Below the pieces are notes generated by a model. That model was not told where the DNA came from. It did not search any database and saw nothing but the letters and a program-made list of their open reading frames with translations. The translations under genes and the position numbers were made by a program. From Eledone cirrhosa (Eukaryota), in the NCBI GenBank assembly GCA_964016885.1, contig OZ024754.1:29450001-29514000 (forward strand): DNA of 64,000 bases, written 5' to 3'. This document shows, piece by piece, positions 7,630-60,234 of the stretch (positions are counted from its first letter, which is position 1; every line of letters begins with the position of its first letter).

Positions 7630-9044
7630 AACGAAGGAGTTGTGGTAAGGAACCAGATGGACCATAACGTACCAGAGTACTCGATACTTAGGGTAGTAGA
7701 GTGGGTAATAGGAAAAGGTATGTCCTCGACGGCAGAGCTCAAGCCATTTCGACGGCTATTTCTGGACTAAATTAGAATTTTTAGCCTGGTAAATAAATAG
7801 CCGAACTTTTCAAGAGGTACTTCCTTATATGGGAAGATTGTAGTTGTCAAAAGGATTGGTCAAAATTTCTTATAAACACAATTAAGTCTATCATGGCAGT
7901 GGGTGCGAGGTGGGGATGGCTGAACTTGCCTGTAGAGCAATGAGGGAGTGGGTGGGGCCGGTCAAGCGTTGAAAGGGAAATCTATGCAGCAAATTCTAAG
8001 GATTGTGTATGAAAGTAGGCGAAAAGGGTTCTGGAGAAAATAGAGGAGGGATGTTATAGAAAAGTTAAATCAATTGAGATTTGGAAACAATAAAAAAAAT
8101 AAGAGAAAGATATATAAAAATATAAAATTGGTTAGTAAGAAGTGATAAAAAGCAAAGACTGTGGAGTCTAAAACAGCTTCTATATTTATGTTGGTGGTGC
8201 TTTTTCGGCCACTGCTAAGTTGAGAATAAAAGATACTAAATAGGAATTTTTGATGTTATAGAATTGTGTAGTAAAATGTAATACAAAATCTCTGGGGTCT
8301 AACACAGCTGCTATGATTAGTTAGTATTGCATTTTCGGCCAATGCTATCTTTAATTTACTGGCGTGGGGGTACTGAGGCTACAGAGGCCCGATGAGCTGC
8401 CTCGGGATTGGCGAAAGGGGAAAAAAGAAAGAGGAAGAAGATCGGCAGTGGAAGGAAGTGATAGGGGGAGACAGAGGGAAGAATGGAAACTGAGAGGAAA
8501 AGAAAAGAGGTACATCTACCTATGTCAGCTGGGGTTTCCCCTATCTTATTCGGCAAGTGGGATGTTTCATGCCATTGTCTACCCATCCGGGTCGTTAGGG
8601 GGTTTGAGAGCGGGGTAATTCCTACGCAATCGGTGTTTGCATGCCGTTACCAGTTCGTCTTTTTTGTTTAGGAGTTGGTCCTTCGTAAACAGCATTTGTT
8701 ATGTTTGCTCCGAGCATAAGTTACACGGACGGCGTCCTCCCGTGTAGGAGTTAGCTCTGGTCATTAAGCTCCAAGTAAGATTGTATGTTATGTTATTATC
8801 TTGAAGGTCCCAGATGTGGCCCGAAAATTCCACATCTGTGCCATCCGCACCCACTACCATGATAGACTTAATTGTGTTTACAAGAAATGTTGACTAATCC
8901 TCTTGACAACTACAATCTTCCCATATAAGGAAGTACCCCTTGAAAAGTTCGGCTATTTATTTACCAGGCTAAAAATTCTAATTTAGTCCAGAAATAGCCG
9001 TCGAAACGGCTTAAGCTCTGCCGTCGAGGACATACCTTTTCCTA
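7630..9044. mobile_element. (TA)n-embedded foldback element, PLE pseudo-LTR-like
   Basis: About 200 bp inverted arms (7709-7910 vs 8843-9044) with an extra ~80 bp tail on the left arm; (TA)n on both sides; related copies at 22243-22441 and 62040-62175. Confidence 0.75.
7738..7816 (-). ncRNA. putative hammerhead ribozyme, U3-A8 core variant
   Basis: CTC-TTGAAAA-[CGGCTATTT...AAATAGCCG stem II]-GAAA-TGGC-TT-GAG; the mirror copy at 8937-9015 (+) has a mismatched stem I. Confidence 0.45.
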
Positions 9045-10309
9045 TATATATATATATATATATATATATATATATATATATATATAATTACGTATGTATG
9101 TATATATATTCATATGAACATTCTATTCCAATATCTGTAAACATCGGCACACATGCAAACCAATGTGTAGCATATATATATATATATATATATATATATA
9201 TATATATATATATATATATATATATATATATATATATATATATAGATAGATAGATATATATTCATTTATTTATAAAGCGAGAGAGAGTGAGAAGGGGTGT
9301 TTATGTGAGGTGCTTGAGCAGATATATTCTTTTATAAATGATAACGTGATGTCAAATGTAAAATTAATCTTATTAATAATTGTTAAAATTAATATAGATT
9401 TGCAATAAAGAAATTGCTGTTATATTTACCAATATTTAAATCTATCATAGCATTAATTCGATCATTTTTTTAAAGATATCTGTTTAAGTTTTGAATTATT
9501 TATTCCACATAATCTTAAAGTCGTTCTTTATCTTTCCATTTCACGTTACGATAATTTTATATCATCACTTCAAGGACATTTTGTTCCTCCTGGAGTTTCT
9601 TCGAAATGTTTATTCCGTGATCAAAGCATCAAACCAACCAATAAAACTATGAAAGATTCTGTTCATAGAAAAAAAATGATTTCTTTTCTTTGATTTCTTT
9701 GCTTGTTTAAAAGAACTGTCTATGTATATCTCTGCGTGTCATGAGAATCTACTAAGAGTTGGTGTCAAGAAGAGCATCCGACCGCAAAAAAAAAAAAAAA
9801 AAAATTCAAAAGTTATTTCCAACAGATATATATAGCCTTTTATGAGGATCGCGAATTTAAATTTTCTTTTAGTACGGAGAATGACCTCATAATGTTGCTA
9901 CTTCTGCAGTCGCTCTTTAACAGAATATTCTTTCATCTGAAAAGATTTCTCGTTCTTTTTTTAATTTTTTTTAATTTAAACTGTAACATTTACTTTTCGT
10001 TTTATCTGTATCGATATTCTAATCATTGTTTTTACGCAAATAAACTTTTGTAGACGATGTTTTGCGTTGTCTATCAAATATACACATGTAATTGAACGAC
10101 GAGATTAAATCCTGGAATACTCTTAACGTTCTTATCTAACGATCTTTAGAACTAGATTTAGTCACATCTGTTGATTTAATTATGTAATTTCATTTGTTTA
10201 TCCATGTTGTGCAGTCTTTCAATAAATCAATTTATGGTTTTCGTTCGTTGTTGAACACTTCCTATTGCATAAGTTAAAATAACGATGATGATGATGATGA
10301 TAATAATAA

Positions 10310-10635
10310 TAATTGTTTCTACTATTGGCACAAGGCCAGCAATTACCCAGTACATTACTGGTACTTTATTTTATTGACCCCGTAAGGATGAAAGGCAAAG
10401 TTAACCTCGGTGGGATGATAATAATAATGGTTTCTTATATAGGCACAAGGCCAGCAATTTTGGGGGAGGAGAGAGTCGATTAAATCGATTACAGTGCATC
10501 ACTGGTATTTTATCTATCGACCCCGTTTGGATAAAAGACAAAGTTAACCTCAGTGGTATTTGAACTTAAAACGTAAAGGATCGTAACTCTCTGCTACAAA
10601 GCATGTTGTACGATGCTTCACCTATACTACCAATC
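10310..10635 (-). mobile_element. two SINE copies (partial OK-like, plus a longer older subfamily)
   Basis: Reverse-complement core and tail; the second copy retains a gtcgattaaatcgat insert. Confidence 0.8.
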
Positions 10636-10657
10636 CAGTAATTGAATTAGATGATTG

Positions 10658-11135
10658 TAAAATCTTATGTGACTCCGCAATACAGTTAAATAAAGTATTA
10701 GAACATAATAAGCCAGACGTAACTGTGGGGGACAAAAACTATGTGGGTCTATAATGAACCACTCATACCAATATGACTTAAGAAATGTGAAGAGGAAAAG
10801 GAGAAAAATAACAATCCATTAAGGTATGAGATTGCTCAGTTGTGATAATTGAAGATGGCGAAAGACAGGCCAGTAGTGATAGGTGCCATGGGAATAGAAA
10901 CCCATAAATTTGATTATTGGATGAAGGAAATGGAAATTGAGTGCAACCCTATTGCATTAATCGAGAAAGCTTGTATTCGGGAACAGCGCAAATTGTTTGG
11001 AACACAGAAAATTATGGGCAGATGATGAAGACATATTTAGTGTTATCTATGACCAGTGATCGTGGTCAGCTATCACAAAATATCGGGATTTTTCAACACG
11101 ATATCTGAGAAAGAAAACCCTATAATAATAATATT
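10658..11135 (+). pseudogene. R4/Dong-like (RLE-type) non-LTR retrotransposon 3' fragment
   Basis: Translates KILCDSAIQLNKVLEHNKPDV...PVVIGAMG, matching KILWD..IQTD..RPD..VPVVIGALG; ends in (TAA)n. Confidence 0.7.
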
Positions 11136-11139
11136 AATA

Positions 11140-58170: not shown

Positions 58171-58850
58171 TGACTTCGGTTTTACTTAGTCTCTCTTTCT
58201 CTCTCCCTCCCACAATCTCTTTATATATATATATATATATATATATATATATATATATATATATATATATATATATATATATATATATATATATATATAT
58301 ATATATATATATATATGAGAGTATTGAAGTTTGCTTGAAGCATTGTGGAACAATAAGTAAATATCTTTAAGTCGTTTGGAAGCCTCGACAATGCAAATGG
58401 GTAAATCTCCGGGTAACAAGGTCCGGTGGTGGAGATTTACACACCACGCATCTTATACACACCACGCATCTCAACGTACACCCACTTACATCTCTCTCTC
58501 CACCACCGGACCTTGTTACCCGGAGATTTACCCATTTGCATTGTCGAGGCTTCCAAACGACTTAAAGATATTTACATATATATATATTTATATATATATA
58601 TATATATATATATATATATATATATATATATATATATATATATATATAAAGAGATTGTGGGAGGGAGAGAGAAAGAGAGACTAAGTAAAACCGAAGTCAG
58701 TGTAGAGGCATATGTTGAAACTTTAGTAGAATATTACAATTGTTTCGATATAGATCAGCTAAAGGTTCAATCAAAATGACGGGACCCGATTTTCTTCGAC
58801 ATCTCGTCAGGTATGCAACTTTATATGTGCAAAGAGACATATATATGTTT
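58171..58850. mobile_element. TA-centred inverted pair (58171-58222 / 58648-58699) with a nested foldback element (58317-58575)
   Basis: Direct reverse-complement matches; the nested element has 79 bp arms and a ~60 bp spacer. Confidence 0.85.
58731..58814 (-). ncRNA. hammerhead motif with extended stem II
   Basis: ATAC-CTGACGA-GATGT...ATATC-GAA-ACAATTGT-A-ATAT (one stem I mismatch). Confidence 0.6.
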
Positions 58851-59008
58851 CTATATATATATATATATATATATGTAGATAAATCTACCAAAAGTTTACG
58901 GTAGTGTCCAATCCGTATGAAGAACTCAATGTAATCCGGATATCATGGAAAGAAGAGATGCATTCAAAAATCACTTTCGGTGAAAGATAAACGGAATACA
59001 GAGTCAAG

Positions 59009-59431
59009 ATAAAATGTTAAAAAAAAAATAATGAATAAAACAATGAAACAGTTCCTTATATTAAACAAAAAAAGTTCATTATTTAACGATCGTTTCTAGG
59101 ACATATATGTGTTAGAATTGGCATGCATATTCAACAGATCTATGTACAAAATTATACAAAATTATACAAACTATCAAATATAATATACATACCAACACAT
59201 ACATATGCCGTCTTCAGAAATTTCTGAAGACGGCATATGTATGTGTTGGTATGTATATTATATTTGATAGTTTGTATAATTTTGTATAATTTTGTACATA
59301 GATCTGTTGAATATGCATGCCAATTCTAACACATATATGTCCTAGAAACGATCGTTAAATAATGAACTTTTTTTGTTTAATATAAGGAACTGTTTCATTG
59401 TTTTATTCATTATTTTTTTTTAACATTTTAT
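59009..59431. repeat. essentially perfect ~420 bp palindrome; each arm carries a long-stem-II hammerhead
   Basis: Centre cagaaa|tttctg at 59220/59221. Plus strand 59220-59360 reads ATTT-CTGAAGA-[~114 nt hairpin]-GAA-ACGATCGT-T-AAAT. Confidence 0.9.
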
Positions 59432-59550
59432 ATATATATATATATATATATATATATATATGTGTGTGTGTGTGTGTGTGTGTGTGTGTGTGTGTATATA
59501 TACAACATGTTGTAGGACAGAACAAAGGAGAGACACAACATAGCAACCTA

Positions 59551-59593
59551 GTCACTGAGGAGGTCACAGAATGTGTGAGGGAAAATCTTTGAC
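59551..59593 (+). ncRNA. hammerhead motif in a solo PLE pseudo-LTR relative
   Basis: GTCA-CTGAGGA-GGTCACA..TGTGAGG-GAA-AATCT-T-TGAC; flanks resemble the reverse complement of 45310-45510. Confidence 0.65.
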
Positions 59594-60234
59594 AAAATAT
59601 AAACAACCATTCAGTTATCGAACCAACCAACCAACCAACAGAAAATGTATAATAAATTGAAGTAAAAATCAACAGTATAACCCTCCCAAAGTATAAAAAT
59701 ATATATATATATATATATATATATATATATATATATATATATATATATATATACTGTATATATATATATATATATATATATATACATACATAAGTCGCTG
59801 GAATGTTGAATAGAATACATTTTGGTATTCATTCCAGCTCCCTGTGCTCTGAATTCAAATCCTTCTGAGGCCTAAGTTTGACTTTTCTTCCTTCAATCAA
59901 TTTAGTCCTTTCGTATTCAAGAAACAAAATACCGACTCTGTACTAGAGACAACACTTCCCTTTCGTTGCCTCGTTTTCATACCAACCCGCCTAACAAAAT
60001 GATCCATTTTAAAGATTCCCATTTCAAACCTTTCAATATAATCTAATACAAGAACGGTTTGTTACATTATACTACAAATAGCATCTTAATAATGAAATAA
60101 TAATTTGAGTTAATCCCTACAAGATTTTAATTAATTAATTATTATTGAATGTATTTCATCAGACATATAATCAATAAAATGTTAGGTTCTGATGTCTCAG
60201 GAAGATTTAGTATGAATTACAGTTACAACTCGTT

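Follow-up and report, generated by a model that had tools for sequence, protein, structure and literature searches.

The hammerhead motifs of the window, by which we mean the whole 64-kb stretch of Eledone cirrhosa DNA that was analysed, are very probably the pseudo-LTR (pLTR) 3′ ends of many families of Penelope-like elements (PLEs), together with ORF-less derivatives that share their machinery. Judged by their sequence and predicted fold, the motifs are type I hammerhead structures of the PLE type and lie far above chance expectation. Ten families could be traced with their upstream context: six consist of the truncated ends of a coding PLE belonging to the family itself, and four are ORF-less. 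Families C, F, I, J, M, N and N2 fall outside this set of ten.

We searched the window with a descriptor comprising the core (CUGANGA or its U3-A8 form), stem II, GAAA, a short or palindromic stem III, UH and stem I. As a control, the window was shuffled 30 times with its microsatellites held in place. The strict descriptor returned 6 matches (cores 22687-, 23757-, 24788+, 34455+, 41812+ and 45500-) versus a mean of 0.53 per shuffle, and the loose descriptor returned 10 (adding 36147-, 36813-, 59224+ and 59217-) versus a mean of 1.27, which confirms an excess over shuffled controls. The reversed window and three decoy cores yielded only 0-2 matches. Permitting a long stem III added cores 7813-, the site placed at 7738 in the preliminary description, and 28690+, 29256+ and 41164-, which that description had overlooked. 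It had claimed about 20 type I motifs, and 11 of 21 positions (20 sites and a mirror) pass the full test; these 11 and the three new motifs have a type I core with three stems, open at stem I. The remaining 10 comprise five cut or decayed copies whose families are intact elsewhere (cores 11951, 13767, 8939, 43203 and 59555) and five that did not pass and belong to neither class (40708, 47161, 58810, 16706 and 21834). The claim of more than ten families holds, because the reported sites sort into 14 sequence clusters. Proximity to (TA)n was also confirmed: a (TA)6+ tract lies no more than 300 nt away from 20 of the 21 positions tested, compared with 39% of background, and element ends in the window mostly adjoin (TA)n tracts. 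Families L, N, N2 and Q have the U3-A8 variant of the core. The base of stem II is mismatched in many cores, single-motif fold z-scores are modest (-0.5 to -3.5), and no hammerhead family appeared among the best 150 of 256 Rfam matches in the window.

The window is typical of the genome. We found 41 strict matches in 36 other 10-kb stretches versus 2.1 in shuffled sequence, and the strict density per 10 kb is 0.94 in the window versus 1.14 elsewhere. The dense community described earlier is thus dense relative to shuffles but is not a hotspot, and extrapolation gives ~3 × 10^5 strict hammerheads genome-wide. Thirty-six of the 41 matches elsewhere lie within 300 nt of (TA)n, where 21.2 were expected. 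Elements occupy ~9.5 kb of the window, or ~11.3 kb (~18%) when two overlooked ones are included. This fraction, one sixth to one fifth, does not bear out the suggestion that they make up much of the unique DNA between TA tracts.

Two further analyses addressed the stems. In a non-circular test, 52 sites were picked solely by core, stem II and GAAA; a Watson-Crick palindrome followed GAA in 22 of them, and stem I was present in 20 of those 22, whereas ten shuffles, summed, gave 39 sites, 2 palindromes and no stem I. Among 20 sequences related to family A, 95% of cells were paired and 10 of 21 pairs showed two-sided changes, mainly in stem II, although this set was picked by a stem-requiring descriptor and the kinship of the sequences inflates the counts. 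None of 500 shuffles scored equally high, and slid controls reached 38-53%. Stem covariation across genomic copies is thereby upheld for the A-related families. The core, U3-A8 swaps, palindromes and compensated stems are kept in at least 18 multi-copy clusters that are otherwise unrelated in sequence. The genome searches used the best 40 copies per query, so that family architecture is viewed through young, near-complete copies.

The ORF-joined families comprise one Neptune-like family (H, core 45500) and five Hydra-type families with window cores 7813 (L), 34455 (A), 43203 (A2), 22687 (B) and 59224 (K). Family H, a young PLE, is represented by a 5′-truncated copy at 45247..46276 on the minus strand, with its GIY-YIG end at 45814-46254 and a 60-nt tail. 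Elsewhere in the genome it has intact ORFs of 1280-1294 aa encoding RT, CX4CxxC and GIY-YIG. They lie between direct repeats, each of which contains the 45500 hammerhead, and are accompanied by inverted copies and flanked by TA. In a Pfam search of the full ORF, RVT_1 fell below the cut-off (E 9e-5) and GIY-YIG above it. The EN+ PLE features (pLTR partial tandems with a hammerhead, an inverted 5′-truncated copy and a tail) are all present. The CX4CxxC linker matches the CX2-5CxxC pattern common to Neptune and Nematis, and the label Neptune-like, taken from this motif, would apply with the proviso that Nematis has it too. A decayed pLTR related to family H lies at 59500..59698 (+, core 59555).

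The Hydra-type families insert in (TA)n and have AT-rich 3′ UTRs of 0.7-2.8 kb, which is why their ends appear non-coding. A Hydra-type endonuclease (CxCX5C, CxxC, CxH) lies upstream of all five, with all three motifs seen at loci L062 and L202 and only the C-terminal motifs in L and B; the CCHH motif is absent. RWK and DKT occur in full-length homologues, including P0003, the genome's own Hydra-type copies examined being 5′-truncated. A Naiad or Chlamys identity, which would imply an endonuclease at the N-terminus and lack of a canonical hammerhead, was rejected, as the endonuclease is C-terminal and hammerheads are present. Family L (7630..9042, minus strand; 5′-truncated) has an endonuclease C-terminus at ~8594-8842 followed by ~0.8 kb of 3′ UTR, a hammerhead with a U3-A8 core (7813-) and 5-bp stem III, a 78-nt tail ending at 7630, and an inverted tail-less copy at 8846-9042 (core 8939+). 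A short L hairpin insertion at 22245..22438 consists of a tail and a fold-back within the hammerhead, and an L fragment (62041..62172, +) lies beyond the range described before. The family A insertion at 11582..12043 joins an inverted tail-bearing copy (core 11951-), which has lost the 5′ strand of stem I and received a SINE, to a forward copy (core 12020+) cut by (TA)n; at 34283..34556 (+), an inverted 91-nt tail piece precedes a truncated pLTR with core 34455. A tblastn link joins family A to a Hydra-type endonuclease 0.7 kb upstream at locus L168. The A2 copy (43150..43285, +) has a decayed core at 43203, and its intact relatives end the Hydra-type ORF at L062. The family B pLTR end (22497..22747, -; core 22687, 98-nt tail) joins a Hydra-type endonuclease 1.5 kb upstream at L201. 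Family K, a palindromic insertion at 58874..59428 with cores 59217- and 59224+, a 114-nt stem II domain and a 137-nt tail, joins a Hydra-type ORF ~2.8 kb upstream at L202/L196.

The other four families (D, E, G and Q; cores 23757, 36147, 41812 and 28690) consist of closed units, 430-750 nt long and without an ORF, that occur in tandem; each unit carries one type I hammerhead that we judged by eye to be of the PLE type. Since they bear a PLE tail, an inverted 5′ copy and (TA)n flanks, we consider them retrozyme-like non-autonomous PLEs. Family D (23408..24445, -) is a partial tandem of a 625-nt unit plus a microsatellite spacer, with a 63-nt tail; its full copy contains core 23757 and the upstream copy is cut at the core. 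Of 16 rows, a script found 10 (and inspection by eye 11) in which the unit's own tail precedes its 5′ start, and complete dimers also occur. Family E (36030..36622, -) is a partial tandem of a 430-440-nt unit with a 32-nt tail, which wraps back into its own 5′ part at 9 of 17 loci. Family G (41373..42105, +; 526-nt unit, 103-nt tail, inverted copy 41373-41582) has 2.3 units. Family Q, overlooked earlier, spans 28184..29611 (+) with 2.5 head-to-tail units of 566 nt (cores 28690 and 29256), and its U3-A8 hammerhead has an 11-bp stem I and a 9-10-bp stem III. A Q relative with ~70% identity and a long stem III (40960..41342, -; core 41164) had also been overlooked. The longest stop-free frames of the four are 70-89 codons; no match to PLE proteins was found, and comparison with eight ORF-linked loci revealed no shared sequence except microsatellite. 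The units are low in GC and, treated as circles, self-paired (z -2 to -8.6). By size (E 430, G 526, Q 566 and D ~680-750 nt), E alone fits the 150-450 nt range of the 2020 retrozyme paper and all four fit the up-to-972-nt range of the 2026 preprint cited below.

Family C (13654..14019, +; core 13767, 148-nt tail) has at least 1 kb of non-coding sequence upstream in other copies, and a second copy (24646..24894, +; core 24788) shows a U-U at the stem II base and a short inverted tail piece. Family M (16600..16850, +), with a U4C variant core at 16706 and a mirror copy at 19560-19816, is old and low-copy (69 candidates in the genome, 69-87% identity). The palindromic insertions N (21563..22024, core 21834) and N2 (36643..36901, core 36813-, 75-nt tail) have U3-A8 cores, and in N this is combined with A13C in all 6 rows listed, which makes its catalytic ability doubtful. 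Family F (40594..40937, core 40708-) is a decayed inverted pair of an old family (780 candidates near 80% identity). Motif I (47100..47200, -; core 47161) has the palindrome and a weak stem II, and motif J (58690..58840, -; core 58810) an 8-nt palindrome and a mismatched stem I.

In every family the 3′ end is fixed at two positions, separated by the 32-148 nt of the PLE tail, and the 5′ ends vary; inverted 5′-truncated partners are frequent, and (TA)n flanks are present. D, E, G and Q run from the tail directly into their own 5′ part and so form head-to-tail units without an ORF. Published PLE biochemistry suggests how this could arise. The GIY-YIG endonuclease would nick (TA)n, and RT would initiate internally on a tandem or circular RNA, at a separate site for each of the two DNA strands, producing tail-bearing and tail-less ends. 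Low RT processivity and fold-back would then leave mostly 150-400-bp stubs with a ribozyme, which would explain the high hammerhead density. The ORF-less units probably arose by deletion, with the RT start sites and the ribozyme retained, and their mobilisation would depend on proteins supplied in trans, Hydra-type ones being the most likely. Most ribozymes would require a dimer for stem III, and most inserted RNA would be uncut. The palindromic stem III of the preliminary description applies to most families, with two having a full stem III. Its PLE-type hammerheads stand in so far as the motifs are diverse and TA-associated, their stems covary and some lie in ORF-less retrozyme-like units. 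Its retrozyme-like system in short non-coding segments fits D, E, G and Q but not the six families linked to PLE ORFs of their own.

Family Q offers possible evidence of cleavage. Four of 38 genomic copies (from the best 40 of 1265 candidates) begin at the predicted cleavage site, as does the first unit in the window (28199), after a short fold-back. These 5′ ends are possibly a DNA fossil of cleavage in vivo; monomeric Q RNA may be able to fold, and cleaved RNA may have been the template for some Q insertions. It is conceivable, if somewhat doubtful, that RT pausing at the base of stem III or a sequence-favoured snap-back produced the same starts with no cleavage involved. Pause point and cut site are at most 1 nucleotide apart, few copies were sampled, and the fold-back junction of the window copy recurs in three of the four genomic cases, which could reflect a hot spot or common ancestry. 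However, family L, with its GC-rich 5-bp stem III, shows no such ends among ~74 copies, and the fold-back copies of Q stop at the first base past the cut, without the unpaired H17 base, at different places and with different arm lengths.

A broader objection is that the ribozymes are mostly inert passengers whose fold serves as a protein-binding or RT-start landmark, with cleavage irrelevant to mobility. Of 128 5′ ends mapped in 11 families, only one falls 3 nt or less from a cleavage site, none of ~74 family L copies starts there, and every family N copy seen (6 rows listed) carries A13C; published experiments report that catalytic mutants still insert in vitro (PMC11167929) and that 1 of 9 dimers was cleaved (bioRxiv 10.64898/2026.07.22.740005). 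We nevertheless regard it as unlikely, given the persistence of an exact core and compensated stems in at least 18 multi-copy clusters and the family Q copies that begin at the cut site.

The preliminary description had instead envisaged that short ORF-less retrozymes, mobilised by PLEs such as that at 45250-46254, had spread in a single radiation. Copies are indeed mostly short, non-coding and TA-flanked, family H is young, intact and abundant, and four families are ORF-less. Yet six of the ten traced families join their own ORF, five of them Hydra-type, and the ORF-less units share only microsatellite with H; the proposal is largely refuted for A, A2, B, K, L and H and very improbable overall. 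The chance is slimmer still that the tandem units are solo pLTRs duplicated locally as DNA by unequal crossover, a route of satellite birth discussed in the same preprint. Units within a locus are 98-99% alike and arrays are short, but copies are dispersed over many contigs (1265-2938 candidates per query), and the tandems terminate at the two fixed ends typical of RT, with inverted 5′ pieces and new TA flanks beside them, a pattern that recombination would not produce. An origin as chance motifs of AT-rich DNA or as artefacts of assembly has a negligible claim and is refuted: a satellite stretch rich in A (L074) accounted for 20 false strict matches and perfect palindromes may be artefacts, against a ten- to twenty-fold excess over shuffles, the non-circular test, covarying stems, hundreds to thousands of dispersed candidates per family and linked intact ORFs.

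Earlier publications cover PLE hammerheads, retrozymes and a Hydra element of octopus that targets TA. Minimal type I hammerheads were described in metazoan PLE pseudo-LTRs by Cervera and de la Pena in 2014 (PMC4209133); as reported there, they share with ours the type I topology, palindromic stem III, U3-A8 variant and many families per genome, and are mostly solo motifs from truncated PLEs, with opposite-strand pairs 100-700 bp apart. Our estimate of ~3 × 10^5 contrasts with the ~2,000-9,000 per genome printed there, and, unlike the hammerheads described in that text, many of our families lack the G10.1-C11.1 pair (A-U, U-U, C-A or A-A instead) and some have a stem II domain >100 nt or a full stem III. 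The Hydra clade, with features including RWK and DKT, and its octopus member Hydra-1_Obim (Octopus bimaculoides) were described by Craig et al. in 2021 (PMC8557442). The likeness includes a C-terminal endonuclease with CxCX5C, CxxC and CxH, RWK and DKT in homologues, a hammerhead near the 3′ end, a (TA)n target, a tail and an inverted 5′ copy, and the listed stem III of Hydra-1_Obim resembles those of family D and cluster 6. That curation, as given, holds one 2.5 kb octopus family with no pLTR and 30-40 bp tails, whereas the Hydra-type families found here number at least six (five of them in the window) and have 78-137 nt tails and 0.7-2.8 kb 3′ UTRs. Family H resembles Neptune (or Nematis) PLEs in its RT, CX2-5CxxC linker, GIY-YIG, pLTR hammerheads and microsatellite bias, and differs in its ~1280-aa ORF with a low-complexity insert; the clade is assigned by motif.

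Animal non-LTR retrozymes (Cervera and de la Pena 2020, PMC7229834; Li et al. 2026, bioRxiv 10.64898/2026.07.22.740005), for which the papers argue a PLE link from co-occurrence and pLTR phylogeny, resemble D, E, G and Q as described: their units lack an ORF, are joined head to tail and contain a single type I hammerhead, are low in GC and self-paired as circles, and occur as short arrays and many solos. Unlike them, our units measure 430-750 nt, have PLE-type rather than canonical hammerheads, are known from DNA alone, and themselves show the PLE hallmarks of a tail, an inverted 5′ copy and a (TA)n target, with a variable microsatellite spacer in family D. Non-autonomous Chlamys elements such as MRC1 (PMC8557442) are likewise ORF-less PLE derivatives with pLTRs and head-to-tail copies; their clade is described as mostly without hammerheads, and they match their parents at the 3′ end, whereas our ORF-less units have no parent among the eight ORF-linked loci. 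In the Anolis Poseidon element PAc (Frangieh et al. 2024, PMC11167929), the tail is attributed to RT starting at two internal sites, and uncut RNA is the main substrate, as we propose here; that study, in the results it sets out, reports no RNA ends at the cleavage site, whereas genomic copies of family Q begin there. The novel points are the scale, the presence of the insertion signature on units that have no ORF, and a putative cleavage-site footprint in the genomic starts of family Q.

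The assembly spans 3.0 Gb, and the window is 67% AT, with (TA)n tracts making up 7% of it. We searched for hammerhead motifs using a descriptor that tolerates a mismatch or bulge at the base of stem II, which in the window retrieved 6 motifs at the strict setting and 10 at the loose one. This exceeds shuffled controls (0.53 and 1.27, mean of 30 shuffles), and decoy cores and the reversed sequence gave 0–2 matches with the same descriptor. An initial tight descriptor was discarded; it found merely 3–4 motifs because it disallowed the bulge or mismatch. Permitting a long stem III added the motif at 7813 and three motifs that had not been listed before. 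Of the 21 motifs originally proposed, 11 pass and five are cut or decayed members of families that are intact elsewhere; the other five fall in neither class. The proposed sites form 14 sequence clusters, in line with the claim of more than 10 families. The reported proximity to (TA)n also holds, as 20 of 21 positions lie ≤300 nt from (TA)6+, against a background of 39%. An Rfam scan of the window contained no hammerhead family among the best 150 of 256 matches, and its best-scoring matches were microRNA models sitting on TA palindromes. About one-sixth of the window's "unique" DNA is ribozyme-bearing debris of Penelope-like elements (PLEs) that is absent from the Rfam matches listed.

To gauge genome-wide density, 37 stretches were sampled, each 10 kb long and placed at a round coordinate on one of 23 large contigs; these choices are arbitrary rather than random. 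One stretch, L074, was left out before the density and distance counts. It holds an A-rich satellite (270–550 bp, without a TA tract) that yields 20 false strict U3-A8 hammerhead matches, and with it the strict count is 61 versus 4.4 in shuffled sequence. The remaining 36 stretches contain 41 strict motifs versus 2.1 shuffled, or 1.14 per 10 kb (bootstrap 0.61–1.72). Extrapolation from these 36 arbitrary stretches gives ~3.2 × 10⁵ strict motifs in the genome (1.7–5.0 × 10⁵), and the window, at 0.94 strict per 10 kb, is ordinary. Several unrelated PLE families can accumulate in a single TA cluster: L053 has ORFs of three types in a span of 10 kb, and L086 and L087 contain 5 and 7 strict matches.

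We selected 52 sites by core, stem II and GAAA only; 22 had a palindrome after GAA, and stem I was present in 20 of these 22. Ten shuffles summed gave 39 sites, 2 with the palindrome and 0 with stem I. Stem covariation was found as well: 20 sequences related to hammerhead family A show two-sided changes at 10 of 21 pairs, mostly in stem II, and shuffled and slid controls score well below them. This result is tempered by the selection of the set for stems and by the kinship among its members. We conclude that the hammerhead motifs are real, genome-wide and of known kind. Some core variants seen here may already be covered by the PLE hammerhead variants reportedly described by Lunse et al. in 2017.

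The motif at 45500 belongs to a young family, H, whose endonuclease is 97–100% identical across 150 scored copies, several of them within open frames near 1280 aa. Three H loci combine a reverse transcriptase, a CX4CxxC linker and a GIY-YIG endonuclease with direct repeats, inverted copies and TA flanks, and two of the three carry a hammerhead in both direct repeats. By motif alone, H would be classed as Neptune-like. Pfam gave no match on whole ORFs, and a PDB sequence search with the reverse transcriptase–endonuclease part of H found nothing; for one PLE protein, the closest named homologue is that of Argonauta hians. Five further window families (L, A, A2, B and K) terminate Hydra-type elements, as seen from an endonuclease end within the window for L and from loci L168 for A, L062 for A2, L201 for B and L202 for K. 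The links for A and B are one locus each, and that for K would span two adjacent stretches. The Hydra-type motifs agree with the clade description in PMC8557442, whose supplement gives Hydra-1_Obim a (TA)n preference and a hammerhead. Most copies look short and non-coding because the 3′ UTRs are long (0.7–2.8 kb, AT- or microsatellite-rich) and 5′ truncation is heavy. Family A was ruled out as a fixed 280-bp non-autonomous unit, as longer copies lead to a Hydra-type ORF. With five families ending Hydra-type elements and H having its own ORF, the non-autonomous share had been overstated, and so had the role of the 45250 element as mobiliser.

Four families, D, E, G and Q, are closed units with a longest stop-free frame of ≤89 codons and no match to a PLE protein, and neither tblastn nor blastn found parents for them. 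Each of the four ends at two fixed 3′ positions, shows inverted 5′ pieces and is flanked by TA. D has a single start point behind a microsatellite, with its own tail (the stretch between the two 3′ ends) upstream of the start in 10 of 16 rows when scored by script and in 11 when read by eye, one row being the window copy and two rows a single locus; D dimers occur at two loci. In E, 9 of 17 loci wrap directly, with no spacer, at a period of 430–441 nt. G is a 526-nt unit repeated 2.3 times in L203, with a wrapped, inverted copy in L204, and Q is a 566-nt unit repeated 2.5 times in the window. Q, the most informative family, was missing from the preliminary description. Queries with the four units returned 1265–2938 first-look candidates each, which set a minimum and should not be read as copy numbers. 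Folded as circles, D, E, G and Q beat shuffles (z = −3.4, −8.6, −5.6 and −2.1, the value for D being aided by its microsatellite). The D spacer, (CA)n(TA)n(TG)n, varies among copies from ~25 to >200 nt (window 23968–24030; L151–L166), and D may seed new microsatellites and hence new targets.

The core-only motif of family P at 12700–12776 is cut by (TA)n and has 5 copies in 370 kb; this is probably where another PLE family has its tail-less end. The region 46287–46780 combines short repeated fragments with a segment also present next to TA tracts in L156, L088 and L167, which probably represent the tail of yet another PLE family. Family C, tracked ~1 kb upstream, met neither an ORF nor a wrap.

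Tails measured in 11 families are 32–148 nt long, compared with 30–40 bp for PLE tails in PMC8557442. PMC11167929 shows a PLE cleaving AT-rich DNA on both strands, with reverse transcription beginning at two internal RNA sites, which bound the tail. If the same holds here, nicks in (TA)n would prime at both RNA sites. One end would acquire the tail and the other would be tail-less, and fold-back or early termination would leave stubs near the ribozyme. Mapped 5′ ends concentrate upstream of the cut site, at a distance of 30–100 nt, and just 1 of 128 lies ≤3 nt from it; therefore most template RNA was uncut, as expected if the ribozymes need a dimer. On this count, the idea that copies as a rule begin at the cleavage site was discarded. 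Breaks ≤12 nt upstream of the cut occur in 5 of 88 copies of A and 1 of 23 of E; ten other families have none. These sets are in part skewed towards whole ribozymes. Any copy exceeding one unit must have come from a multimeric or circular template.

In the window, the first base of the Q array is the one that follows the predicted cut, and a short fold-back precedes it. We queried with the 156 nt after the cut and, in every one of the 38 copies listed from elsewhere in the genome, inspected the 40 nt upstream. Four break at the predicted cut site (L213, L220 and L222, which have the same fold-back as the window array, and L228, within one base of the cut), two break at the other 39 positions (L216 and L233), and 32 continue. 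Visual inspection changed two script labels: L221, a register shift, was counted as continuing and L216 as a break. Given independent copies, 4 of 6 breaks would fall in 2 of 41 positions with a binomial probability of 8 × 10⁻⁵. We lean towards the reading that these starts reflect cleavage. That they mark a reverse transcriptase pause or hot spot instead is plausible but less likely. Family L, with its GC-rich stem III, has no cut-site end in ~74 copies (70 by script and four by eye, among 105 pattern matches, the rest unrelated), which argues against a generic pause at stem III. It also means that L, a second foldable family, shows no footprint; one of two L copies folded has a competing hairpin of similar energy.

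The 3.2-kb inverted duplication at 16600–19816 (96–100% identity, centred on the TA tract 17970–18442) is either a fold-back duplication or an assembly artefact, and its family M motifs point inwards, which differs from the usual PLE head-to-head layout. Near-identical 2-kb blocks occur in three to four copies at 48800–56560, with long (TTC)n tracts and SINE copies. An abundant 190-bp SINE, which resembles octopus SINEs, is found in inverted pairs and has landed repeatedly in AT-rich parts of hammerhead elements (47538–47754 and 26519–26599; L183, L185 and L197), so it is younger than those copies. Other retroelement fragments lie at 19863–21002 and 32939–33813; 32939–33469 matches Pfam RVT_1, and 20412–21002 has no Pfam match and resembles a restriction-like endonuclease of non-LTR elements. 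At G000:C3:170870445-170873496, a 50–100-bp tandem array akin to part of family F sits beside an F copy, possibly a satellite born from a pseudo-LTR (pLTR).

Intact, young PLE ORFs are available in this genome, along with several units that lack an ORF but bear the complete PLE insertion signature and, in Q, a family predicted to fold as a monomer with copies starting at the cut site. One protein and a handful of short RNAs would therefore suffice to test the hammerhead role and retrozyme mobilisation, and the genome is a large natural library of hammerhead variants. Our confidence is evenly balanced on the broader reading that this is the densest hammerhead population found on record (~100 per Mb, 3 × 10⁵), that the ORF-less families are direct genomic proof of retrozyme integration by PLE proteins from multimeric or circular RNA, and that Q insertions were copied from germ-line RNA cut by its own ribozyme, with the cDNA running off the cut RNA end and then snapping back to prime the inverted copy. 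If true, it would connect PLE-type hammerhead cleavage with transposition in vivo, a link missing so far.

We compared these results with published systems. Minimal PLE hammerheads, solos, opposite-strand pairs and U3-A8 were already described (PMC4209133), as was a TA-targeting octopus Hydra element in PMC8557442, which calls the role of hammerheads in PLEs unclear. In the sole biochemical study, cleavage proved dispensable and the search for RNA ends at the cut site was negative (PMC11167929). Retrozymes, along with the suggestion that PLEs mobilise them, are also published (PMC7229834; bioRxiv 10.64898/2026.07.22.740005), and PLE mobilisation of animal retrozymes has hitherto been argued from pLTR trees and co-occurrence. 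The word "ribozyme" is absent from the main text of an octopus repeat annotation (PMC13282606). A literature search, with most subscription papers beyond reach, returned no genome-wide cephalopod hammerhead paper, no retrozymes with PLE tails and inversions, and no report of insertions starting at the cut site. The largest printed count found is 126,247 hammerheads in the axolotl, whose genome size is 28 Gb according to the 2026 preprint (10.64898/2026.07.22.740005), which corresponds to ~4.5 per Mb, compared with ~100 per Mb here.
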